Shown one piece after another: positions 34,775-53,804 of a stretch of DNA of 64,000 nucleotides. Each line of letters starts with the position of its first letter. Position 1 is the first letter of the stretch. Position numbers and translations under genes: made by a program. Under the pieces are notes generated by a model. It worked only from the letters and a program-made list of their open reading frames with translations. It was not told the origin of the DNA and did no database searches. Source of the DNA: Escherichia coli (lineage in GTDB: Bacteria; Pseudomonadota; Gammaproteobacteria; Enterobacterales; Enterobacteriaceae); NCBI RefSeq assembly GCF_024298765.1, contig NZ_CP101210.1. One strand, 5' to 3'.

Positions 34775-34934
34775 GGGTTATTCCTTATCTATCTAATAAC
34801 GTTGAGTTTTCTGGAACCTGTCCCATTGAACTCTCGCCGGAAAGCTCAATAAGACAGGTTCTACGTTTAGTTGCCGCGCTTTTATATGCGCTTGATTTAC
34901 AACATCTTCTGGATAATTTTTACCAGAAAAATCA

Positions 34935-35730: not shown

Positions 35731-35747
35731 AATTGGTCTTACCAATT
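35731..35747. promoter_or_regulatory. PdhR operator palindrome AATTGGTcttACCAATT in the pdhR promoter/leader
   Basis: perfect palindrome read from the sequence, about 32 bp upstream of the pdhR start; matches the known PdhR box. Confidence 0.75.
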
Positions 35748-36151
35748 TCATGTCTGTGACGCTAAAGTAACAAAGTATTCACCTTATGTCCATACAGGTT
35801 TTGATTGAAATCATGAAACTGTGCACATTTTAACAACTTGACATATATAACGTTTCAAAGTTGTAACTATGCACAAATGTAGACTTTACGTAAGAAAGGG
35901 ATTTTTTAACGATTATTAAACTATAAAAATCCGAATTGAACCGATTCACTTACCAATTTATCGATTTTTAATTCAAAAATAATGAATTTATATTCATTTT
36001 GTATGTTGAGGGGATTTGAGGCTGACCTTTACAAACGGTTCCTTTTTAAGCAACTCATCTTCAACCATGCATAAAGCGGGTGCATTCGCTGCCGTATACC
36101 ATTATTCTTTATCTGACGGAAGTCCTTTTGTAACAATTCAAACGTCTTTGA

Positions 36152-36169
36152 TGTAAACAAATTAATACA
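36152..36169. promoter_or_regulatory. putative TyrR box (TGTAAA-N6-AATACA) in the aroP upstream region
   Basis: resembles the TGTAAA-N6-TTTACA consensus; aroP is a known TyrR target; exact site not verified. Confidence 0.35.
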
Positions 36170-36242
36170 AAAAACGGAATTGCAAACTTACACACGCATC
36201 ACTGCGTAGATCAAAAAAACAATCACCGCACGAGGTTTCATA

Positions 36243-39085: not shown

Positions 39086-40039
<954 letters not shown>

Positions 40040-40241
40040 TTGCTGACAGATTTATCCGCTCCATCGCGGGCGGATAATCTCCCCTTTCCCAACTTTCTTC
40101 GTAACGCCTCGCAAATTTCTTGTCTTTCGCTGCAACGTAATAAAAAACTCCGGAAGCTGCTTTCCCGTTTCGTTTTTTGCCCCTCGCTTGTGCTGATGGC
40201 GTTTGCCAAAGTAGCGCCAACCAAATCAAGGAGCGAAACAA

Positions 40242-40682
40242 ATGGACAAGCAACGCGGTTTTACACTTATCGAACTGATGGTGGTTATTGGCATCATTGC
40301 CATTTTAAGCGCCATTGGTATTCCCGCTTATCAAAACTACCTGCGCAAAGCCGCACTCACCGACATGCTACAAACCTTTGTGCCTTACCGTACCGCCGTA
40401 GAGTTGTGCGCGCTGGAACATGGTGGATTAGATACCTGCGACGGTGGCAGCAATGGCATTCCCTCGCCTACCACCACCCGCTATGTTTCAGCCATGAGTG
40501 TGGCAAAGGGCGTGGTGTCGCTGACCGGGCAAGAAAGTCTCAATGGGCTAAGCGTCGTCATGACACCGGGTTGGGATAACGCAAACGGCGTCACCGGCTG
40601 GACGCGCAACTGCAATATTCAAAGTGACAGCGCATTGCAGCAAGCCTGCGAAGATGTCTTTCGCTTTGATGACGCCAACTAA
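40242..40682 (+). CDS. ppdD: type IV prepilin (major pilin)
   Basis: 146-aa ORF with the classic prepilin leader MDKQRGFTLIELMVV. Confidence 0.9.
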   Translation: MDKQRGFTLIELMVVIGIIAILSAIGIPAYQNYLRKAALTDMLQTFVPYRTAVELCALEHGGLDTCDGGSNGIPSPTTTRYVSAMSVAKGVVSLTGQESLNGLSVVMTPGWDNANGVTGWTRNCNIQSDSALQQACEDVFRFDDAN

Positions 40683-40691
40683 GGAGCGGCA

Positions 40692-42077
40692 ATGAATATT
40701 CCACAGCTCACCGCCCTGTGTCTGCGTTATCAGGGAGTCTTGCTGGATGCCAGCGAAGAGGTGGTTCATGTTGCGGTGGTCGATGCCCCTTCGCATGAGC
40801 TACTGGACGCATTGCATTTCGCTACCACCAAACGTATTGAGATCACCTGCTGGACGCGCCAACAAATGGAAGGTCACGCCAGTCGCACCCAACAGACATT
40901 GCCCGTAGCTATTCATGAGAAGCATCAGCCCAAAGCAGAGTTGCTGACTCGAACGTTACAATCTGCGCTGGAACAACGCGCGTCTGATATTCATATCGAA
41001 CCAGCGGACAATGCCTACCGCATCCGCTTGCGTATCGACGGTGTATTGCATCCTTTACCGGATGTTTTACCGGATGCCGGAGTCGCATTAACCGCCAGAT
41101 TAAAAGTGCTGGGCAACCTGGATATTGCGGAACATCGCCTGCCGCAGGACGGGCAATTCACTGTCGAACTGGCAGGAAACGCCGTCTCATTTCGTATTGC
41201 GACCTTACCATGCCGGGGTGGTGAAAAGGTGGTATTAAGGTTGTTACAGCAGGTGAGCCAGGCACTGGATGTCAACACGCTGGGGATGCAGCCGTTACAA
41301 CTGGCGGACTTTGCTCATGCCTTGCAACAACCACAGGGACTGGTGCTGGTAACTGGCCCTACAGGCAGCGGCAAAACGGTCACGCTTTATAGTGCCCTGC
41401 AAACGCTGAATACCGCTGACATTAATATTTGTAGCGTCGAAGATCCGGTTGAGATCCCCATAGCCGGACTAAACCAGACGCAAATCCATCCGCGTGCCGG
41501 TCTTACCTTTCAGGGCGTTTTGCGTGCGTTATTGCGCCAGGACCCTGACGTCATCATGATCGGAGAGATCCGCGATGGCGAAACAGCAGAGATCGCTATT
41601 AAAGCGGCGCAAACCGGTCACCTGGTGTTGTCTACCCTACACACCAATTCCACCACTGAAACACTGGTACGTTTACAGCAAATGGGAGTCGCCCGCTGGA
41701 TGCTCTCATCGGCGCTTACGCTGGTAATAGCCCAGCGTCTGGTACGCAAACTTTGCCCACATTGCCGCCTGCAGCAAGGGGAGCCCATCCATATTCCAGA
41801 CAATGTATGGCCGTCGCCGCTGCCCCGCTGGCAAGCACCCGGTTGTGTACATTGCTACCACGGTTTTTATGGTCGCACGGCCTTATTTGAAGTTCTGCCC
41901 ATAACACCGTTCATACGTCAGCTTATTTCCGCTAATACCGACGTTGAATCGCTGGAAACGCACGCCCGACAGGCGGGTATGCGAACGCTTTTTGAAAACG
42001 GCTGCCTGGCCGTGGAGCAAGGCTTAACCACCTTTGAAGAGTTAATCCGCGTATTGGGAATGCCGCATGGCGAGTAA
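40692..42077 (+). CDS. hofB: type IV pilus assembly ATPase (GspE/PilB family)
   Basis: 461-aa ORF; Walker A GPTGSGKT; tetracysteine motif (CPHC...C..C). Confidence 0.9.
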   Translation: MNIPQLTALCLRYQGVLLDASEEVVHVAVVDAPSHELLDALHFATTKRIEITCWTRQQMEGHASRTQQTLPVAIHEKHQPKAELLTRTLQSALEQRASDIHIEPADNAYRIRLRIDGVLHPLPDVLPDAGVALTARLKVLGNLDIAEHRLPQDGQFTVELAGNAVSFRIATLPCRGGEKVVLRLLQQVSQALDVNTLGMQPLQLADFAHALQQPQGLVLVTGPTGSGKTVTLYSALQTLNTADINICSVEDPVEIPIAGLNQTQIHPRAGLTFQGVLRALLRQDPDVIMIGEIRDGETAEIAIKAAQTGHLVLSTLHTNSTTETLVRLQQMGVARWMLSSALTLVIAQRLVRKLCPHCRLQQGEPIHIPDNVWPSPLPRWQAPGCVHCYHGFYGRTALFEVLPITPFIRQLISANTDVESLETHARQAGMRTLFENGCLAVEQGLTTFEELIRVLGMPHGE

Positions 42078-43269
42078 GCAACTCTGGCGCTGGCGTGGCA
42101 TAACCGGCGGCGGCAATGCGCAAGATGGGATGCTATGGGCAGAGAGCCGTGCTTTGCTGCTCATAGCACTACAGCAACAGATGGTTACCCCACTTAGCCT
42201 GAAGCGAATCGCCATCAATTCTGCGCAGTGGCGAGGAGATAAAAGCGCGGAAGTCATTCATCAACTGGCGACGCTACTCAAAGCCGGGTTAACGCTTTCT
42301 GAAGGGCTGGCACTGCTGGCGGAACAGCATCCCAGTAAGCAATGGCAAGCGTTGCTGCAATCGCTGGCGCACGATCTCGAACAGGGCATTGCTTTTTCCA
42401 ATGCCTTATTACCCTGGTCAGAGGTATTTCCGCCGCTCTATCAGGCAATGATCCGCACGGGGGAATTGACTGGTAAGTTAGATGAATGTTGCTTTGAACT
42501 TGCTCGACAGCAAAAAGCCCAACGTCAGTTAGCCGATAAAGTGAAATCAGCGTTGCGTTATCCCATCATCATTTTAGCGATGGCAATCATGGTGGTTGTG
42601 GCAATGCTGCATTTTGTGCTGCCGGAGTTTGCTGCTATTTATAAGACCTTCAACACCCCACTACCGGTACTAACGCAGGGGATCATGACGCTGGCAGACT
42701 TTAGTGGCGAATGGGGCTGGCTGCTGGTGTTGTTCGGCTTTCTGCTGGCGATAGCCAATAAGTTGCTGATGCGCCGCCCGACCTGGCTCATCGTGAGGCA
42801 AAAATTACTGTTACGCATCCCAATTATGGGTTCACTGATGCGAGGACAAAAACTCACGCAGATCTTTACGATTCTGGCGCTGACACAAAGTGCAGGCATT
42901 ACTTTTTTACAGGGCGTAGAGAGCGTCAGAGCAACAATGCGCTGTCCGTATTGGGAGCAACTTCTGACACAAATCCAGCACGATATCAGTAACGGTCATC
43001 CCATCTGGCTGGCGCTAAAAAATGCCGGTGAGTTTAGCCCGCTCTGTTTGCAATTAGTGAGAACAGGAGAGGCATCCGGTTCGCTGGATCTCATGTTAGA
43101 CAACCTCGCCCGTCATCATCGGGATAACACCATGGCGCTGGCGGATAACCTTGCAGCCTTGCTCGAACCGGTGTTGCTGGTCATAACGGGAGGAATTATC
43201 GGTACGCTAGTGGTGGCAATGTATTTGCCAATTTTCCATTTAGGCGATGCGATGAGTGGGATGGGATAA
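42067..43269 (+). CDS. hofC: type IV pilus assembly inner-membrane platform protein (GspF/PilC family)
   Basis: 400-aa ORF; overlaps the hofB 3' end by 11 nt. Confidence 0.9.
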   Translation: MASKQLWRWRGITGGGNAQDGMLWAESRALLLIALQQQMVTPLSLKRIAINSAQWRGDKSAEVIHQLATLLKAGLTLSEGLALLAEQHPSKQWQALLQSLAHDLEQGIAFSNALLPWSEVFPPLYQAMIRTGELTGKLDECCFELARQQKAQRQLADKVKSALRYPIIILAMAIMVVVAMLHFVLPEFAAIYKTFNTPLPVLTQGIMTLADFSGEWGWLLVLFGFLLAIANKLLMRRPTWLIVRQKLLLRIPIMGSLMRGQKLTQIFTILALTQSAGITFLQGVESVRATMRCPYWEQLLTQIQHDISNGHPIWLALKNAGEFSPLCLQLVRTGEASGSLDLMLDNLARHHRDNTMALADNLAALLEPVLLVITGGIIGTLVVAMYLPIFHLGDAMSGMG

Positions 43270-43295
43270 CGCTGGCGTGTTACTCCACGCCAGCA
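43270..43295. terminator. bidirectional stem-loop between the convergent hofC and guaC genes (gctggcgtg...cacgccagc)
   Basis: inverted repeat read directly from the sequence. Confidence 0.6.
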
Positions 43296-43303
43296 TTGGG
43301 AGA

Positions 43304-44347
43304 TTACAGATTGTTGAAGATGCGGTTTTCTTGTTCCTGTACACGGATAAACGTAGTGCGCTTGGTCAGCTCTTTCAGGCGTGAAGCCCCAACGTATGTA
43401 CAAGCTGAACGCAGGCCGCCCAAAATATCACGCGCGGTATTTTCAACCGGGCCTCGCAGCGGCAGCTTAACGGTTTTACCTTCTGCTGCGCGATATTCCG
43501 CAACGCCGCCAACGTGACGTTTCATCGCAGACTCGGAGCTCATGCCGTAGAACAGCATAAATTTCTCGCCGTTCTCCTCAACGATGCGACCGCCGCTCTC
43601 TTCGTGGCCCGCCAGCATGCCGCCAAGCATGACGAAATCGGCACCGCCGCCAAAGGCTTTCGCGACATCGCCCGGCGTGGTGCAGCCACCGTCGCTGACG
43701 ATCATTCCGCCCAGACCATGCGCAGCATCGGCACATTCGATCACCGCAGAAAGTTGCGGATAACCGACGCCTGTTTTGACGCGAGTTGTACAAACAGAAC
43801 CTGGGCCAATGCCAACTTTAACGATATCAGCACCGGAGAGGATAAGCTCCTCACACATTTCACCAGTCACTACGTTGCCAGCACAAATGGTTTTGGTCGG
43901 CCACGCTTCACGCGCTTTCGCAACGAACTGCACGAAGTGTTCAGAATAACCATTCGCCACGTCAATACAAACGAAGTTTAATGCCGGGTTCAGGTCGAGA
44001 ATCTGTTTAGTTTTTTCGAAATCCGCATCAGACGTACCGGTAGAAACCATCACATGTTTCAGCACATCAGCGGAAGAATTGTTGATAAACGCTTGCCACT
44101 CTTCGACAGAATAGTGTTTATGCACAGCAGTCAGAATATCAAAAGAAGCCAGCGCAGAGGCCATAGAAAATGTGCCTACGGTGTCCATATTTGCGGCAAT
44201 AATCGGCACGCCGGACCAGCTCTGACCTGAATGTTTAAAGGTGAATTGACGTTCCAGTTCAACATCGGAACGGCTTTTAAGAGTGGAGCGTTTAGGGCGG
44301 ATGAGAACGTCTTTAAAACCTAACTTCAGATCTTCTTCAATACGCAT
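43304..44347 (-). CDS. guaC: GMP reductase
   Basis: 347-aa ORF recognised as GuaC (IMPDH/GMPR fold, active-site Cys region). Confidence 0.95.
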
Positions 44348-46149: not shown

Positions 46150-46356
46150 TCTGATGCGACGCTGGCCTGATAAGACGCGGGCAGCGTCGCATCAGGCATC
46201 GTGTGCAAATGTCGGATGCGGCGGGAACGCCTTATCCGACCTACAAGACCTTACATATCAACATGTTAAAATTGTAGATACTGATAAGACGCGCCAGCGT
46301 CGCATCGGGCATCTTGTGCAAATGTTGGATGCGGCATAAACGCCTATCCGACATAC
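46150..46356. repeat. cluster of about four REP units (BIME) between yacG and mutT; the last unit overlaps the mutT stop
   Basis: repeated gatgcgacgctg...cagcgtcgcatc and g(t)cggatgcggcg..aacgcctatccgacctac units read from the sequence. Confidence 0.8.
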
Positions 46357-46742
46357 ACACGCTTAAGCTTCGCAAGTACCGGTTCATTGGCTGGCGGAAA
46401 ATCATCGGCATTCAGACCGACCAGCGACATCCACTCACCGGGTTGCCCTTCTTTACCCCACGGCTCCCCTTCCCAGCTTTCGACCAGCCAGAACCACAGT
46501 GTTATATGCCTGTCCGGGAATTCATATTCCAGTATTTCAAATAGCGAAAAATGTTGTGGGGTAATCCCGACTTCTTCCTGAAGTTCACGCACCACCGCCT
46601 GTTCCGGCGTTTCACCCATTTCAATTTTACCGCCGGGAAACTCCAGTTTATTCGCCATGTGCGCATCTGCGGCGCGACGCGTTATAAAGATTTTATTGTT
46701 CTCGTTGCGAATAATACCTACCGCAATTTGCAGCTTTTTCAT
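46344..46742 (-). CDS. mutT: 8-oxo-dGTP diphosphatase (Nudix)
   Basis: 132-aa ORF with Nudix box GGKIEMGETPEQAVVRELQEEVGI; last codons and stop lie inside a REP unit. Confidence 0.9.
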   Translation of the reverse strand: MKKLQIAVGIIRNENNKIFITRRAADAHMANKLEFPGGKIEMGETPEQAVVRELQEEVGITPQHFSLFEILEYEFPDRHITLWFWLVESWEGEPWGKEGQPGEWMSLVGLNADDFPPANEPVLAKLKRVYVG

Positions 46743-46756
46743 TGTCTTAAACCTAT

Positions 46757-46786
46757 AAAAAAGGCGCAGAATCCTGCGCCTTTTAC
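46757..46786 (-). terminator. stem-loop with U-tract downstream of secA (aaaaggcgcaggattctgcgcctttttt on the - strand)
   Basis: read directly from the sequence. Confidence 0.65.
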
Positions 46787-46801
46787 TTCAATTGTTAGCT
46801 T

Positions 46802-49507
46802 TTATTGCAGGCGACCATGGCACTGCTTGTATTTTTTACCAGAACCGCACGGGCAAGGATCATTACGTCCAACTTTGCGTTCACCGGTTTGTGCCGCCAG
46901 TGCAGCTGCGGCTGCAGAGTCGTCATCCTGATGGCTAAGCTGCTGCATTTGCGCTAAACGCTCGGCTTCCATACGACGCTGTTGTTCCAGCTCTTCAACC
47001 TCTTCAGGCATACGTACCTGGACTTTGCTCAGCGTGCTGATGACTTCATATTTCAGCGACTCCAGCATCGCTGCAAACATGGAGAACGATTCACGTTTGT
47101 ATTCCTGCTTCGGATCTTTCTGTGCATAGCCACGCAGGTGGATACCTTGACGCAGATAATCCATCGCCGCCAGGTGCTCTTTCCACAGGGAGTCAAGCGT
47201 TTGCAGCATGACGCCTTTCTCGAAGTGACGCATCATCTCAGCGCCAACCACTTCTTCTTTACGCTGATACACTTCGATGGACTGCGCCAGAATACGCTCA
47301 CGCAGCGTCTCTTCATGCAGTTCTGGCTCTTTGTCCAGCCACTCGGCAATCGGCAAATCGAGGTCGAAATCGTTCTTCAGACGTTCCTGCAGCCCCGGAA
47401 TATCCCACATTTCTTCCAGCGACTGTGGCGGAATGTAGGCATCAATGGTCGCTTTGAACACATCTTCACGAATGCTGTTGATGGTTTCACTCACATCGCT
47501 GACATCCAGCAGTTCGTTACGCTGGGAGTAAATGGCGCGACGCTGATCGTTAGCCACGTCATCATATTCCAGCAGTTGCTTACGAATGTCGAAGTTACGG
47601 CTTTCAACTTTACGCTGGGCGTTGGCAATCGCTTTGGTCACCCACGGGTGCTCGATGGCTTCGCCTGGTTTCATACCCAGTTTACGCATCATGCCGGAAA
47701 CACGGTCAGAAGCAAAAATACGCATCAGCGCATCTTCCATCGACAGGTAGAAACGTGAAGAACCGGCATCCCCCTGGCGCCCAGAACGACCGCGTAGCTG
47801 GTTATCGATACGACGAGATTCGTGACGTTCTGTACCGATGATATGCAGACCACCTGCAGCCAGTACCGCATCGTGACGCACCTGCCAGTCGGCTTTGATT
47901 TTTTCAATTTGCTCTGCGGTCGGATTTTCCAGCGCGGCAACTTCTGCCTGCCAGCTACCACCGAGCACAATATCTGTACCACGACCCGCCATGTTAGTCG
48001 CGATAGTCACCGCCGCCGGATAACCCGCTTGTGCAACAATCGCTGCTTCGTTAGCGTGGAATTTGGCGTTCAGAACGTTGTGTTTGATACCGGCTTTGGT
48101 CAGCTCGTTTGACACCAATTCCGATTTTTCGATGGAGATAGTACCCACCAGCACTGGCTGGCCCTTCGCAGTACGCTCTTTGATATCTTCGATGATCGCC
48201 TGGATTTTTTCTGCTTCAGTCATATAGACCAGATCTGGCAGATCTTTACGAATCATCGGACGGTTGGTTGGAACAACAACGGTATCCAGTTTGTAGATTG
48301 AGCTAAATTCGAAAGCTTCGGTATCAGCAGTACCGGTCATGCCCGCCAGTTTTTCATACAAACGGAAGTAGTTCTGGAAGGTGATCGACGCCAGCGTCTG
48401 GTTTTCGTTCTGGATCTGTACTCCTTCTTTCGCTTCCACTGCCTGATGCAGGCCATCGGACCAACGACGTCCCTGCATGGTACGACCGGTGTGTTCGTCA
48501 ACGATGATAACTTCACCATCTTTAACGATGTAGTCGACGTCTCGGGTAAACAGCGCATGAGCGCGCAGCGCCGCCGTTACGTGGTGCATCAGCATGATGT
48601 TGGCCGGAGAGTACAGAGACTCCCCTTCATCCATGATGCCTTCTTTCACCAGCAGTTCTTCAATCAGCACCAGACCACGTTCGGTCAGGTTCACCTGGCG
48701 AGATTTTTCGTCCACCGAGAAGTGGCCTTCGCCCTGGAAGGTTTCGGAGTCTTCTTTTTCCTGACGGATCAGGTGCGGAATAATTTTATTCACGCGTTTA
48801 TACATTTCCGAGCTGTCTTCTGCCGGGCCGGAAATGATCAGCGGTGTACGCGCTTCATCGATCAGGATGGAGTCCACTTCGTCCACCAGCGCATAGTGCA
48901 GTTTACGCTGTACACGTTCTTCAGGGCTGAACGCCATGTTATCGCGCAGGTAGTCAAAGCCGTATTCGTTGTTCGTACCGTAAGTGATGTCAGCTGCGTA
49001 AGCTTCGCGCTTTGCCGGTGCTGGCATGCCCGGCAGGTTGATGCCGACTGTCAGGCCGAGGAATTCAAACAACGGACGGTTGTTTTCGGCGTCACGTTGC
49101 GCCAGGTAATCGTTGACGGTAACAACGTGTACCCCCTTACCGGTTAATGCGTTCAGGTAAGCAGGCAGCGTTGCGGTCAGGGTTTTACCTTCACCGGTAC
49201 GCATTTCCGCGATGCAGCGTTCGTTAAGAACCATACCGCCGAGTAACTGAACGTCGAAGTGACGCATACCAAAGACGCGCTTACTTGCCTCACGCACCAC
49301 AGCGAAAGCTTCTGGGATCAGATTTTCCAGCACTTCGCCTTTTTCCAGACGTGCACGAAACTCTGCGGTTTTCCCTTTCAGTTCTTCGTCGGAGAGTTTT
49401 TCCATCTCCGGTTCCATGGCATTGATGATGTTGACGACTTTGCGCATCCGGCGCAGGGTGCGATCGTTACGACTACCGAAAACTTTAGTTAATAATTTGA
49501 TTAGCAT
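46802..49507 (-). CDS. secA: preprotein translocase ATPase SecA
   Basis: 901-aa ORF recognised as SecA, including the C-terminal zinc-binding [14 protein letters not shown]. Confidence 0.97.
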
Positions 49508-51329: not shown

Positions 51330-52481
51330 TTAATCAGCTTGCTTACGCAGGAATGCTGGGATATCCAGATAATCCGGCTCTTTCGCAGTTTGCGGTGCGT
51401 TGTCATTCACGACTTTAGCAACCGGTTTCTGCTCCTGAGTCAGCGGTGCCATCCCGTGCTGCTGGTAGCGATCCATCACTGGCTGCTGAACCTGCTTATT
51501 GGTCACCAGGGTGATTTCAGGACGTTTGTCCATACCGATACCTGTCGCAACAACGGTTACGCGCAGCTCGTCATTCATATCCGGGTCAAGAGAAGTACCG
51601 ATAACGACAGTTGCGTTGTCGGATGCAAATGCACGGATGGTGTTACCTACCGTTTCGAACTCATCCAGACGCAGGTCGAAGCCCGCCGTGATGTTAACCA
51701 GCACGCCGCGCGCGCCAGACAGATCGATATCTTCCAGCAGCGGAGAGGAGATAGCCATTTCAGCAGCTTCTTCCGCACGGTCTTCGCCGCTCGCCACACC
51801 AGAACCCATCATTGCGTAGCCCATTTCAGACATTACGGTACGTACGTCTGCAAAGTCCACGTTCATCAGGCCTGGACGAGTAATCAGTTCAGCGATACCT
51901 TGCACAGCACCTTTCAGTACATCGTTCGCTGCGCCAAATGCATCCAGCAGGGAGATACCGCGGCCCAAGACTTTCAGCAGTTTGTCGTTAGGGATAGTGA
52001 TCAGAGAGTCCACATGCTTGGACAGTTCAGTGATCCCCTGCTCAGCGAATGCCATACGCTTCTTGCCTTCAAAGTTGAAAGGCTTAGTCACGACAGCAAC
52101 GGTCAGGATCCCCAAATCTTTTGCCACTTCAGCGACAACTGGTGCTGCACCAGTACCGGTACCACCACCCATACCCGCAGCAATAAAGACCATGTCTGCA
52201 CCTTCCAGCGCCGCACGCAGTGCATCGCGATCCTCATCAGCCGCATTACGGCCAACTTCTGGATTTGCGCCAGCTCCCAGTCCTTTGGTGATACCGCTAC
52301 CGATTTGAATCGTCTGTCCAACCGCTGTTTTACGCAGCGCTTGTGCATCGGTATTTACCGCGAAGAATTCAACACCTTCAATGCGCTCGCGCACCATGTG
52401 TTCAACAGCATTACCGCCGCCGCCGCCGACGCCGATGACTTTAATCACCGCGTCATTGGTAAGTTCCATTGGTTCAAACAT
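51330..52481 (-). CDS. ftsZ: cell division GTPase FtsZ
   Basis: 383-aa ORF; tubulin signature GGGTGTG. Confidence 0.97.
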
Positions 52482-52541
52482 AGTTTCTCTCCGATTTGTG
52501 CCTGTCGCCTGAGGCCGTAATCATCGTCGGCCTCATAAAAA

Positions 52542-53804
52542 TTAAAACTCTTTTCGCAGCCAACTATTGAGTCGCTTGATCCACGAGCCAACTGATGCTG
52601 TAACACGTTTTTCTACTTCAGCTTCACCGTTAAGATGTGACTCTTTCCCATAGTGAAGCAATCCCACCGCCGTCGAATAATACGGCTCCTGAGCATAATC
52701 CGTTAAACCGGTAATGTTCAGCGGCGCGCCGATACGCACTTGCGTATGAAACACGCGCTGAGCACAGGCTGCAAGACCTTCGATCTGCGCTGCGCCACCA
52801 GTTAAAACAATGCCTGCCGCCAGGTGATGTTTAACCCCTTGTTGGCGAAGCTTTTCCTGCAACTGCAATATCTCTTCGTTGACCAGGTTGAGCAGCTCGG
52901 TATAGCGCGGCTCGATCACCTCTGCCAGGGTCTGACGTTGCAGACTCCGCGGTGGACGACCGCCTACGCTCGGCACTTCCACGCTCTCATCTTTTCCAAC
53001 GATGGAACCCAGCGCACAACCGTGGCGAACTTTAATCGCTTCGGCGTCGCTTGGCGGCGTGCCAAAGGCGTAAGCGATATCACTGGTCACGACATTGCCA
53101 GCATAAGGAATTACCTTAGTGTGGCGCAATGCCCCACCGGTATAAACGGCGATATCCATTGTACCACCACCGATATCGACGACGCAGACACCCAGTTCAC
53201 GTTCATCTTCCGTCAATACCGAATAACTTGATGCCAGTCCGGCAAATATCAGTTGGTCAACTTTCAACCCACAACGTTCAACCGCTTTGACGATGTTTTT
53301 CGCCATATCGTTGTGACATGTGATCAGGTGCACTTTTGCCTGCATCCGCACGCCCGAAAGTCCTACCGGATTCTTGATCCCTTCCTGATAGTCAATCGCA
53401 TACTCTTGCGGGATCACATGCAGCACACGATGCTCATCGCGCACACGCACCGATTTCGCGGTATGGACGACGTTTTCCACATCTTCTTGCGTCACTTCTT
53501 CTTCAGAAATAGGCACCATACCAATTTCATTCTGGCAGCTGATGTGCTTACCAGAAAGCGCCAGATATACCGAAGAGATCTGACAATCTGCCATCAATTC
53601 TGCCTGGTCAATGGCGCGTTGTACGCACTTGACCACGGATTCGAGGTCGTTCACCCCGCCTTTATCCATACCACGCGACGGGCAGCTGCCCACGCCAATG
53701 ATATTGACCATACCGTCGGGCAGAACTTCCCCTACTAAAGCGGCAACCTTCGCGGTACCAATCTCCAGTCCTACTACCAGTTTTCTGTCCGTCGCCTTGA
53801 TCAT
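52542..53804 (-). CDS. ftsA: cell division protein FtsA (actin-like ATPase)
   Basis: 420-aa ORF recognised as FtsA. Confidence 0.97.

Follow-up and report, generated by a model that had tools for sequence, protein, structure and literature searches.

The ppdD–hofB–hofC genes of a non-laboratory Escherichia coli lineage: an intact locus probably encoding the core of a type IVa pilus

We analyzed the ppdD–hofB–hofC gene trio in a 64,000-nucleotide stretch of Escherichia coli DNA (hereafter the window; contig NZ_CP101210.1). The trio very probably forms an operon of three genes for the inner-membrane core of the enterobacterial type IVa pilus (T4aP), also known as the haemorrhagic coli pilus (HCP), and is controlled through a CRP-S site and Sxy; we give this reading a probability of about 0.9. 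The locus is already published for E. coli, and here it is intact and ordinary, with nothing new. The genes are silent but under purifying selection, with no decay. Gene calls were taken from a six-frame open reading frame (ORF) list, positions refer to the window and all three genes lie on the + strand (Table 1). A preliminary description of this DNA had named the trio and noted its tight linkage and the 11 nt overlap of hofB and hofC (42067–42077); the ORF list and equivalog hidden Markov models reproduce this, and its coordinates are exact to the base. Between ppdD and hofB there are 9 nt. In strain 104, a 100%-identical genome, RefSeq places the boundaries of the three coding sequences at the same positions, and the G+C and GC3 contents are no different from those of the adjoining genes. 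The order around the trio is aroP, ampE, ampD, nadC, ppdD–hofB–hofC, guaC, coaE, zapD, yacG, mutT and secA, which is the 2.5-minute part of the E. coli map in reverse orientation.

The first gene encodes a major pilin of the T4aP class. PpdD scores 269 bits against the NCBIfam equivalog NF007862 (cut-off 138), its Pfam domains are N_methyl and Pilin, and TIGR02532 also matches. Pilins of this class have a short basic leader of fewer than ten residues that ends in Gly, followed by Phe at +1, Glu at +5 and a hydrophobic α-1 segment, and the mature chain of about 140–160 residues carries a C-terminal disulphide loop. All of these features are present in PpdD. The leader MDKQRG (40242–40259), read as canonical in the preliminary description, has its cleavage site between Gly6 and Phe7 within a GFTLIE motif at residue 6 (MDKQRG/FTLIELMVV), which gives a mature protein of 140 residues with F1 and E5; the single hydrophobic segment spans residues 9–27. 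Cys56 and Cys66 correspond to mature C50–C60, and Cys124 and Cys136 to mature C118–C130. Two disulphides at these positions and an essential His54 have been published (bioRxiv 10.1101/2021.04.14.439816); motif inspection places the four cysteines at the published positions and finds His54 in the mature chain. The four cysteines are retained in 24/24 PpdD orthologues from Enterobacterales. The protein is identical to that of K-12, with a single nucleotide difference in the gene, and one substitution separates it from PDB entries 6gv9, the PpdD pilus of enterohaemorrhagic E. coli (EHEC), and 6gms.

The second and third proteins match their own NCBIfam equivalogs, NF007755 for HofB (817 bits, cut-off 617) and NF007861 for HofC (658 bits, cut-off 401), and these scores bear out the earlier naming of a GspE/PilB-type ATPase and a GspF/PilC-type platform protein. 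In Pfam, HofB consists of T2SSE and a weak MshEN N-domain. The five motifs expected of a T4aP extension ATPase are all found: Walker A (GPTGSGKT) at residue 222, the Asp box at 250, Walker B at 283, the His box at 308 and a tetracysteine site formed by CPHC at 355 and CVHC at 385. HofB aligns with the solved structures of PilB, PilF and GspE from about residue 76 on, with an E-value of 6e-105 for PilB. HofC has two T2SSF domains in Pfam and three hydrophobic segments, as a PilC-type platform does, and matches Myxococcus PilC in 3jc8 with an E-value of 8e-45.

Since type II secretion uses an ATPase, a platform and a pilin-like subunit of the same superfamily (GspE, GspF and GspG), HofB and HofC could be secretion components and PpdD a pseudopilin. 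In thousands of genomes the RefSeq annotation pipeline (PGAP) indeed gives hofB the name 'gspE: type II secretion system protein GspE', the alignment of HofB with GspE structures is nearly as good as that with PilB, and literature cited in PMC2649431 has a heterologous type II system assembling PpdD. However, the type II cut-offs are missed by all three proteins: HofB scores 454 against the GspE equivalog TIGR02533 (cut-off 630), HofC 264 against the GspF equivalog TIGR02120 (cut-off 424) and PpdD 29 against the GspG model TIGR01710 (cut-off 89). HofB also falls below the PilB equivalog TIGR02538 (483, cut-off 676). In addition, PpdD, a pilin of 140 residues with a disulphide at its C-terminus, was solved as a type IV pilus, the ORF list contains no gspC, gspD or gspG–M next to the trio, and the partner loci belong to the pilMNOPQ type. 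We therefore consider a secretion system very improbable. Because HofB and HofC miss the GspE, PilB and GspF cut-offs, the product name is a naming artefact and no sign of a secretion system; calling HofB 'GspE', as RefSeq does, is misleading.

The arrangement of the three genes carries the signals of an operon, namely the 9 nt gap, the 11 nt overlap and the Shine–Dalgarno sequences before ppdD and hofB. The ppdD–hofB junction contains no significant RNA structure (z −0.58), and an intercistronic structure or terminator between the two genes was rejected on this value. Sequence inspection finds no strong Shine–Dalgarno sequence before hofC, which together with the overlap suggests that hofC is translationally coupled to hofB. 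Downstream, hofC and guaC are convergent, and their 34 nt spacer is filled by a GC-rich hairpin. This hairpin has no U-tract on either strand and is thus not a canonical intrinsic terminator; it may nevertheless mark the end of the operon. In K-12, Sxy induces 'ppdD' 90-fold in a strictly CRP- and cAMP-dependent manner (PMC1635313). The quantitative PCR amplicon of that study maps inside hofB (41013–41121), and since the primers lie in hofB, the induction is also evidence for co-transcription of hofB and ppdD.

Regulation of the operon is indicated by the 202 nt spacer between nadC and ppdD, in which a single 16-mer resembles a CRP-S site. On the − strand it reads TGCGAGGCGTTACGAA, with a perfect TGCGA in the promoter-proximal half and a degenerate distal half. 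E. coli CRP-S sites are 16 bp long and combine one TGCGA half (C at position 6) with a second half that is degenerate, an architecture dissected by half-site swaps in the sxy promoter, Psxy (PMC6728893). The 13 nt stretch GCCTCGCAAATTT, which covers the promoter-proximal half and its flank, is the same in the Psxy site given in that paper. CRP band-shifts the upstream fragment of K-12 ppdD (PMC1635313), and the primers of this mobility-shift fragment map to about 40029–40158, with the CRP-S site in the middle. The window spacer differs from that of K-12 by ten substitutions, none of them within the CRP-S core. Among 16 aligned Enterobacteriaceae spacers, which otherwise hardly align, most keep the CG-N6-TCGCA core. 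A scan for consensus sigma-70 promoters over 39900–43500 returned 0 sites against 2.9 expected. A CRP-S site without such a promoter fits the published dependence on cAMP–CRP and Sxy, and the preliminary description of a poorly expressed system tied to DNA uptake is in line with PMC1635313 and PMC3330819. By analogy with K-12, the same control would be expected in the avian/clinical lineage of the window. Between the nadC stop codon and the CRP-S site lies a stable hairpin, probably the nadC terminator, which would shield ppdD from read-through; in other genera this position is occupied by a different hairpin.

Downstream of the CRP-S site, three conserved blocks (Table 1) stand out as islands in the 16-sequence footprint and form a candidate core promoter. 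A further block, (T/C)TGnCAnAGT at 40203–40218, lies just 5′ of the ppdD Shine–Dalgarno sequence and is kept in 16/16 aligned spacers. The segment 40094–40160 also shares about 70 nt of ordered blocks with the region upstream of K-12 ppdA (− strand): a CRP-S-like TTCTTCG..ACGCC is followed by CTGCAACG, then TAAAnA and then TCCGGAAGnTGC. The local alignment of the two promoters scores 28, compared with 17.9 ± 2.6 in shuffled sequences, 3/500 of which reached this score. The CTGCAACG and CCGGAAG blocks are absent from the K-12 promoters of hofM, ybaV, sxy, smf, yhgH and yifB. As they occur only at ppdD and ppdA and are missing from these six other competence promoters, a general Sxy-box was rejected. 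By eye, a TAAAnn hexamer (40141–40146 in ppdD) follows the CRP-S 16-mer by 28–33 nt in ppdD, sxy and ppdA. Were this hexamer the −10 element, the centre of CRP would fall near −47.5, a spacing that matches neither the class I nor the class II type. Two other candidates were discarded: an attenuator formed by the T-run hairpin at 40151–40178 (weak, −5.6 kcal/mol, and without an RNAalifold consensus across 16 genera) and a sigma-54 or sigma-E promoter at the conserved GGAA...TTCC block, whose spacing and bases were judged unfit by eye.

The trio is flanked directly by nadC and guaC, and the secretin and PilMNOP genes of a T4aP are not in the cluster. The K-12 hofMNOPQ locus, which is of the pilMNOPQ type, is found in 5425/5426 E. 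coli genomes; it should thus be present elsewhere in the genome of the window lineage, and the system is split, not incomplete. Likewise, no minor pilin genes adjoin the trio, and ppdAB–ygdB–ppdC forms another locus in 5425/5426 genomes. Neither pilD nor pilT stands beside the trio in the ORF list; no search was made for gspO, pppA or yggR at other sites of the genome. The genes for the secretin, the alignment proteins, the minor pilins and the prepilin peptidase are thus not in the window, and the pilus requires at least three dispersed loci, of which the trio is one. Pili form when hofBC, hofMNOPQ, ppdAB–ygdB–ppdC, gspO and a pilin gene are expressed heterologously (bioRxiv 10.1101/856302). 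Filament assembly is known for the EHEC and K-12 proteins from that work and from PDB 6gv9.

Family knowledge and the published reconstitution suggest how the parts would work together, with Sxy/CRP control, assembly and uptake taken from the K-12 and EHEC literature. PpdD would be made as a prepilin with a six-residue leader and inserted in the inner membrane, where a prepilin peptidase encoded elsewhere would cut after Gly−1 and N-methylate Phe1. ATP hydrolysis by a HofB hexamer is predicted to act through the polytopic platform HofC, and the two proteins would raise pilins from the membrane and add them at the base of the filament. The filament would then leave through the HofQ secretin, assisted by the alignment proteins HofMNOP and the minor pilins PpdA, PpdB, YgdB and PpdC. 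With no consensus sigma-70 promoter and a hairpin that insulates it from nadC, the operon would stay silent until cAMP–CRP on the weak, non-palindromic CRP-S site is joined by the co-activator Sxy (TfoX); the silence would follow from the scarcity of Sxy under laboratory conditions. The same pilus assembly and DNA uptake may be expected in the avian/clinical lineage by analogy.

Such silence also raises the question of whether the trio is a truly cryptic, decaying remnant that is kept by chance. PpdD was undetected in laboratory cultures of K-12 and of 72 ECOR strains (PMC3330819), no consensus promoter was found in the scanned region, and the amino-acid sequences of HofB and HofC change 2–4 times faster than those of PpdD and of the neighbouring genes. 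Against this, the trio is present in 5424/5426 complete E. coli genomes, 5423 of them at a coverage of at least 80%; when the searches with the trio, ppdD and hofC are taken together, its DNA is present at this coverage in at least 5418/5426. Every genome examined has intact reading frames, including 7/7 E. coli alleles compared. In a cross-species scan with one genome per species, which gave 24 Enterobacterales loci that range from Escherichia albertii to Yersinia, Edwardsiella and Pantoea, the order nadC–ppdD–hofB–hofC–guaC–coaE is kept in almost all loci, and the catalytic motifs, the four cysteines and the Shine–Dalgarno sequences are kept across families. The ratio of nonsynonymous to synonymous substitution (dN/dS), calculated by the Nei–Gojobori method against E. 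albertii, Citrobacter, Pseudocitrobacter and Enterobacter, is 0.03–0.05 for ppdD, about 0.09 for hofB where dS is unsaturated and 0.06–0.12 for hofC, far below 1 in each case; the flanking housekeeping genes give 0.01–0.15. Moreover, the genes function when expressed (bioRxiv 10.1101/856302). The low dN/dS and the intact alleles leave hardly any room for a decaying remnant.

The three genes differ in how much they vary. The preliminary description had proposed a strain comparison of a 'ppdD variable region'; this comparison reveals no such region, and of the three genes ppdD varies least. In 3536/5424 genomes (65%) it matches the window at 99% identity or more, and in only 2 it is less than 95% identical. 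The hofC gene is at least 99% identical in only 67/5424 genomes, 1746/5424 fall in the 90–95% band, and identity to the window allele drops to 93.8%, about 6% nucleotide divergence within the species. Such polymorphism of hofC is unusual for a core gene of E. coli and is not shared by ppdD and the unlinked hofMNOPQ locus, which are at least 95% identical (at least 97% among the matches listed). Nucleotide diversity in a seven-genome sample rises from 0.009 in ppdD to 0.025 in hofB and 0.035 in hofC, and the ratio piN/piS in the same sample is about 0.12 for hofB and hofC, still purifying. Protein identity across genera has the same order, PpdD > HofB > HofC, with 92/77/68% in Citrobacter and 92/66/57% in Pseudocitrobacter. 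Across Enterobacteriaceae, PpdD identity is 78–95%, and 67–93% for the globular domain alone.

Pilins are variable in Pseudomonas and Neisseria, in contrast to PpdD. The reversal of this usual pattern might mean that an additional constraint acts on PpdD, for example a fixed ligand or more than one assembling machine, or that HofB and HofC undergo lineage-specific co-evolution or recombination; separately, the shared ppdD and ppdA promoter blocks might represent an unrecognised pilus-specific module. We regard these proposals as speculative and rather improbable. The faster change in HofB and HofC may in part reflect a regional mosaic, given the nucleotide divergence of 3.8% in secA. High conservation of PpdD had already been noted by Luna Rico et al. 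(2019), as cited in bioRxiv 10.1101/2021.04.14.439816.

Several points weigh against the proposed operon and its role. First, no convincing −10/−35 pair could be placed upstream of ppdD. Second, the CRP-S pattern occurs 29 times in the whole window against 43.7 expected and is not enriched; as the count is not significant, the site rests on its position, the footprint and its similarity to Psxy. Third, Sxy-induced DNA uptake in E. coli is low-level and hofQ-dependent, and it is barely detectable even when Sxy is overexpressed (PMC3330819). For this last reason the natural role, whether DNA uptake, use of DNA as a nutrient or adhesion, is unsettled.

Adhesion or virulence as the main natural job of HCP, with DNA uptake a minor by-product, concerns only the physiological role and does not conflict with the same molecular mechanism. 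PpdD (HcpA) pili are made by EHEC on minimal casein medium, and hofQ mutants of uropathogenic E. coli (UPEC) are defective in kidney colonisation and persistence (PMC2649431, PMC2920817). The lineage of the window includes avian pathogenic O78:H4 strains, and the unusual conservation of PpdD, including its globular domain, would suit a fixed receptor or interaction surface. However, the only promoter signal found is a competence-regulon CRP-S site, the gene names and the knock-out phenotypes at the partner loci relate to DNA use, and pili of UPEC have never been seen by electron microscopy (PMC2649431). We therefore see adhesion as a possible but doubtful principal role.

Comparison with known systems places the operon of the window closest to ppdD–hofB–hofC of K-12 (b0108–b0106) and hcpABC of EHEC, which occupy the same locus with nadC upstream and guaC downstream and share the CDS lengths, the junctions and the CRP-S core. 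HofB lacks about 100 N-terminal residues of PilB, and its alignments start near PilB residue 176–200. The ATPase of the pilABCD operon in Haemophilus influenzae is similarly short. That operon has the same order of pilin, ATPase and platform genes, is controlled by CRP and Sxy, and is linked to DNA uptake (PMC1635313). It differs in its fourth gene, pilD: in the window no pilD follows hofC, and guaC converges 34 nt downstream. A further difference is that E. coli shows no detectable natural transformation (PMC3330819). The pilA and pilBCD genes of Pseudomonas aeruginosa and Myxococcus xanthus encode a homologous class of pilin, with a short leader and G−1, F+1 and E+5, and their PilB-type motifs and PilC topology are common to HofB and HofC. 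Compared with these pilins, PpdD has a second disulphide, and no pilT, pilU or pilD is linked to the trio. Finally, the pilin of the E. coli trio is its most conserved component and not its most variable one.

The window belongs to a non-laboratory, avian/clinical lineage. The 3.26 kb region of the trio is 100% identical in several dozen (about 70–80) avian, porcine and human clinical isolates, avian pathogenic O78:H4 among them. Identity of at least 99% is found in 80/5424 genomes; most, including K-12, are about 96.6% identical, and a 25 kb stretch gives the same lineage picture. Thus, of the earlier framing as a system of laboratory E. coli, the known system stands, and the allele is not that of a laboratory strain. 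Compared with K-12 MG1655, hofB differs by 3.25% of nucleotides and 10 amino acids, and hofC by 4.66% and 15 amino acids, whereas the flanking genes differ by 0.5–2.3% of nucleotides. The exception is secA, which combines its 3.8% divergence with one amino-acid change; this high synonymous divergence suggests a mosaic or recombined patch.

Table 1. Positions of the trio, its associated signals and other features in the window.
Feature	Position	Strand	Details
ppdD	40242–40682	+	146 aa, starts MDKQRGFTLIELMVV; type IVa major prepilin; ORF list
hofB	40692–42077	+	461 aa; PilB/GspE-family hexameric assembly ATPase; ORF list, profiles
hofC	42067–43269	+	400 aa; PilC/GspF-family inner-membrane platform protein; ORF list, profiles
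Hairpin after nadC stop	40048–40080	+	core TTATCCGC...GCGGATAA; −16 kcal/mol, z −2.68, 0/200 shuffles as stable; probable nadC terminator
CRP-S site	40098–40113	+	TTCGTAACGCCTCGCA; only CRP-S-like 16-mer in the 202 nt spacer
Conserved blocks	40130–40159	+	CTGCAACG, TAATAAAAAA, CCGGAAGCTG; candidate core promoter
ppdD Shine–Dalgarno	40228–40233	+	AAGGAG, read from sequence; GGAG core invariant in 16 Enterobacteriaceae spacers
hofB Shine–Dalgarno	40681–40686	+	AAGGAG; overlaps ppdD stop codon
Hairpin, hofC/guaC spacer	43271–43294		9 bp GC-rich stem; −18.1 kcal/mol, z −2.84
tp2	34777–34890	+	Rfam, gathering score; aceE–pdhR spacer
pdhR–aroP spacer	35733–36242		
naRNA4 (REP-derived)	46164–46241	−	Rfam, gathering score; between yacG and mutT
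mutT	46344–46742	−	132 aa
STnc40	46757–46826	−	Rfam, gathering score; between mutT and secA
secA	46802–49507	−	
PssrA	52473–52562	−	Rfam, gathering score; ftsA/ftsZ junction

Other parts of the window also depart from related strains. MutT has 132 residues and the C-terminus ...AKLKRVYVG, compared with 129 residues and ...PVIAKLKRL in K-12. The yacG–mutT spacer differs in length among strains and contains insertion-sequence (IS) elements in strain DLL7555. At the pdhR–aroP spacer, a type VI secretion gene, tssD, adjoins aroP in place of pdhR in FDAARGOS_1251 and DLL7555; the window is without this insertion. Four Rfam families match at gathering score (Table 1).

In summary, the locus, its proteins, one structure and the Sxy/CRP control are already published, and the value of the present analysis as a discovery is small. 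Strain comparisons are worth directing at hofC and hofB, the variable genes, rather than at ppdD. The value lies in a cleaner record, in which the pilus genes of an avian/clinical lineage are intact and under purifying selection.

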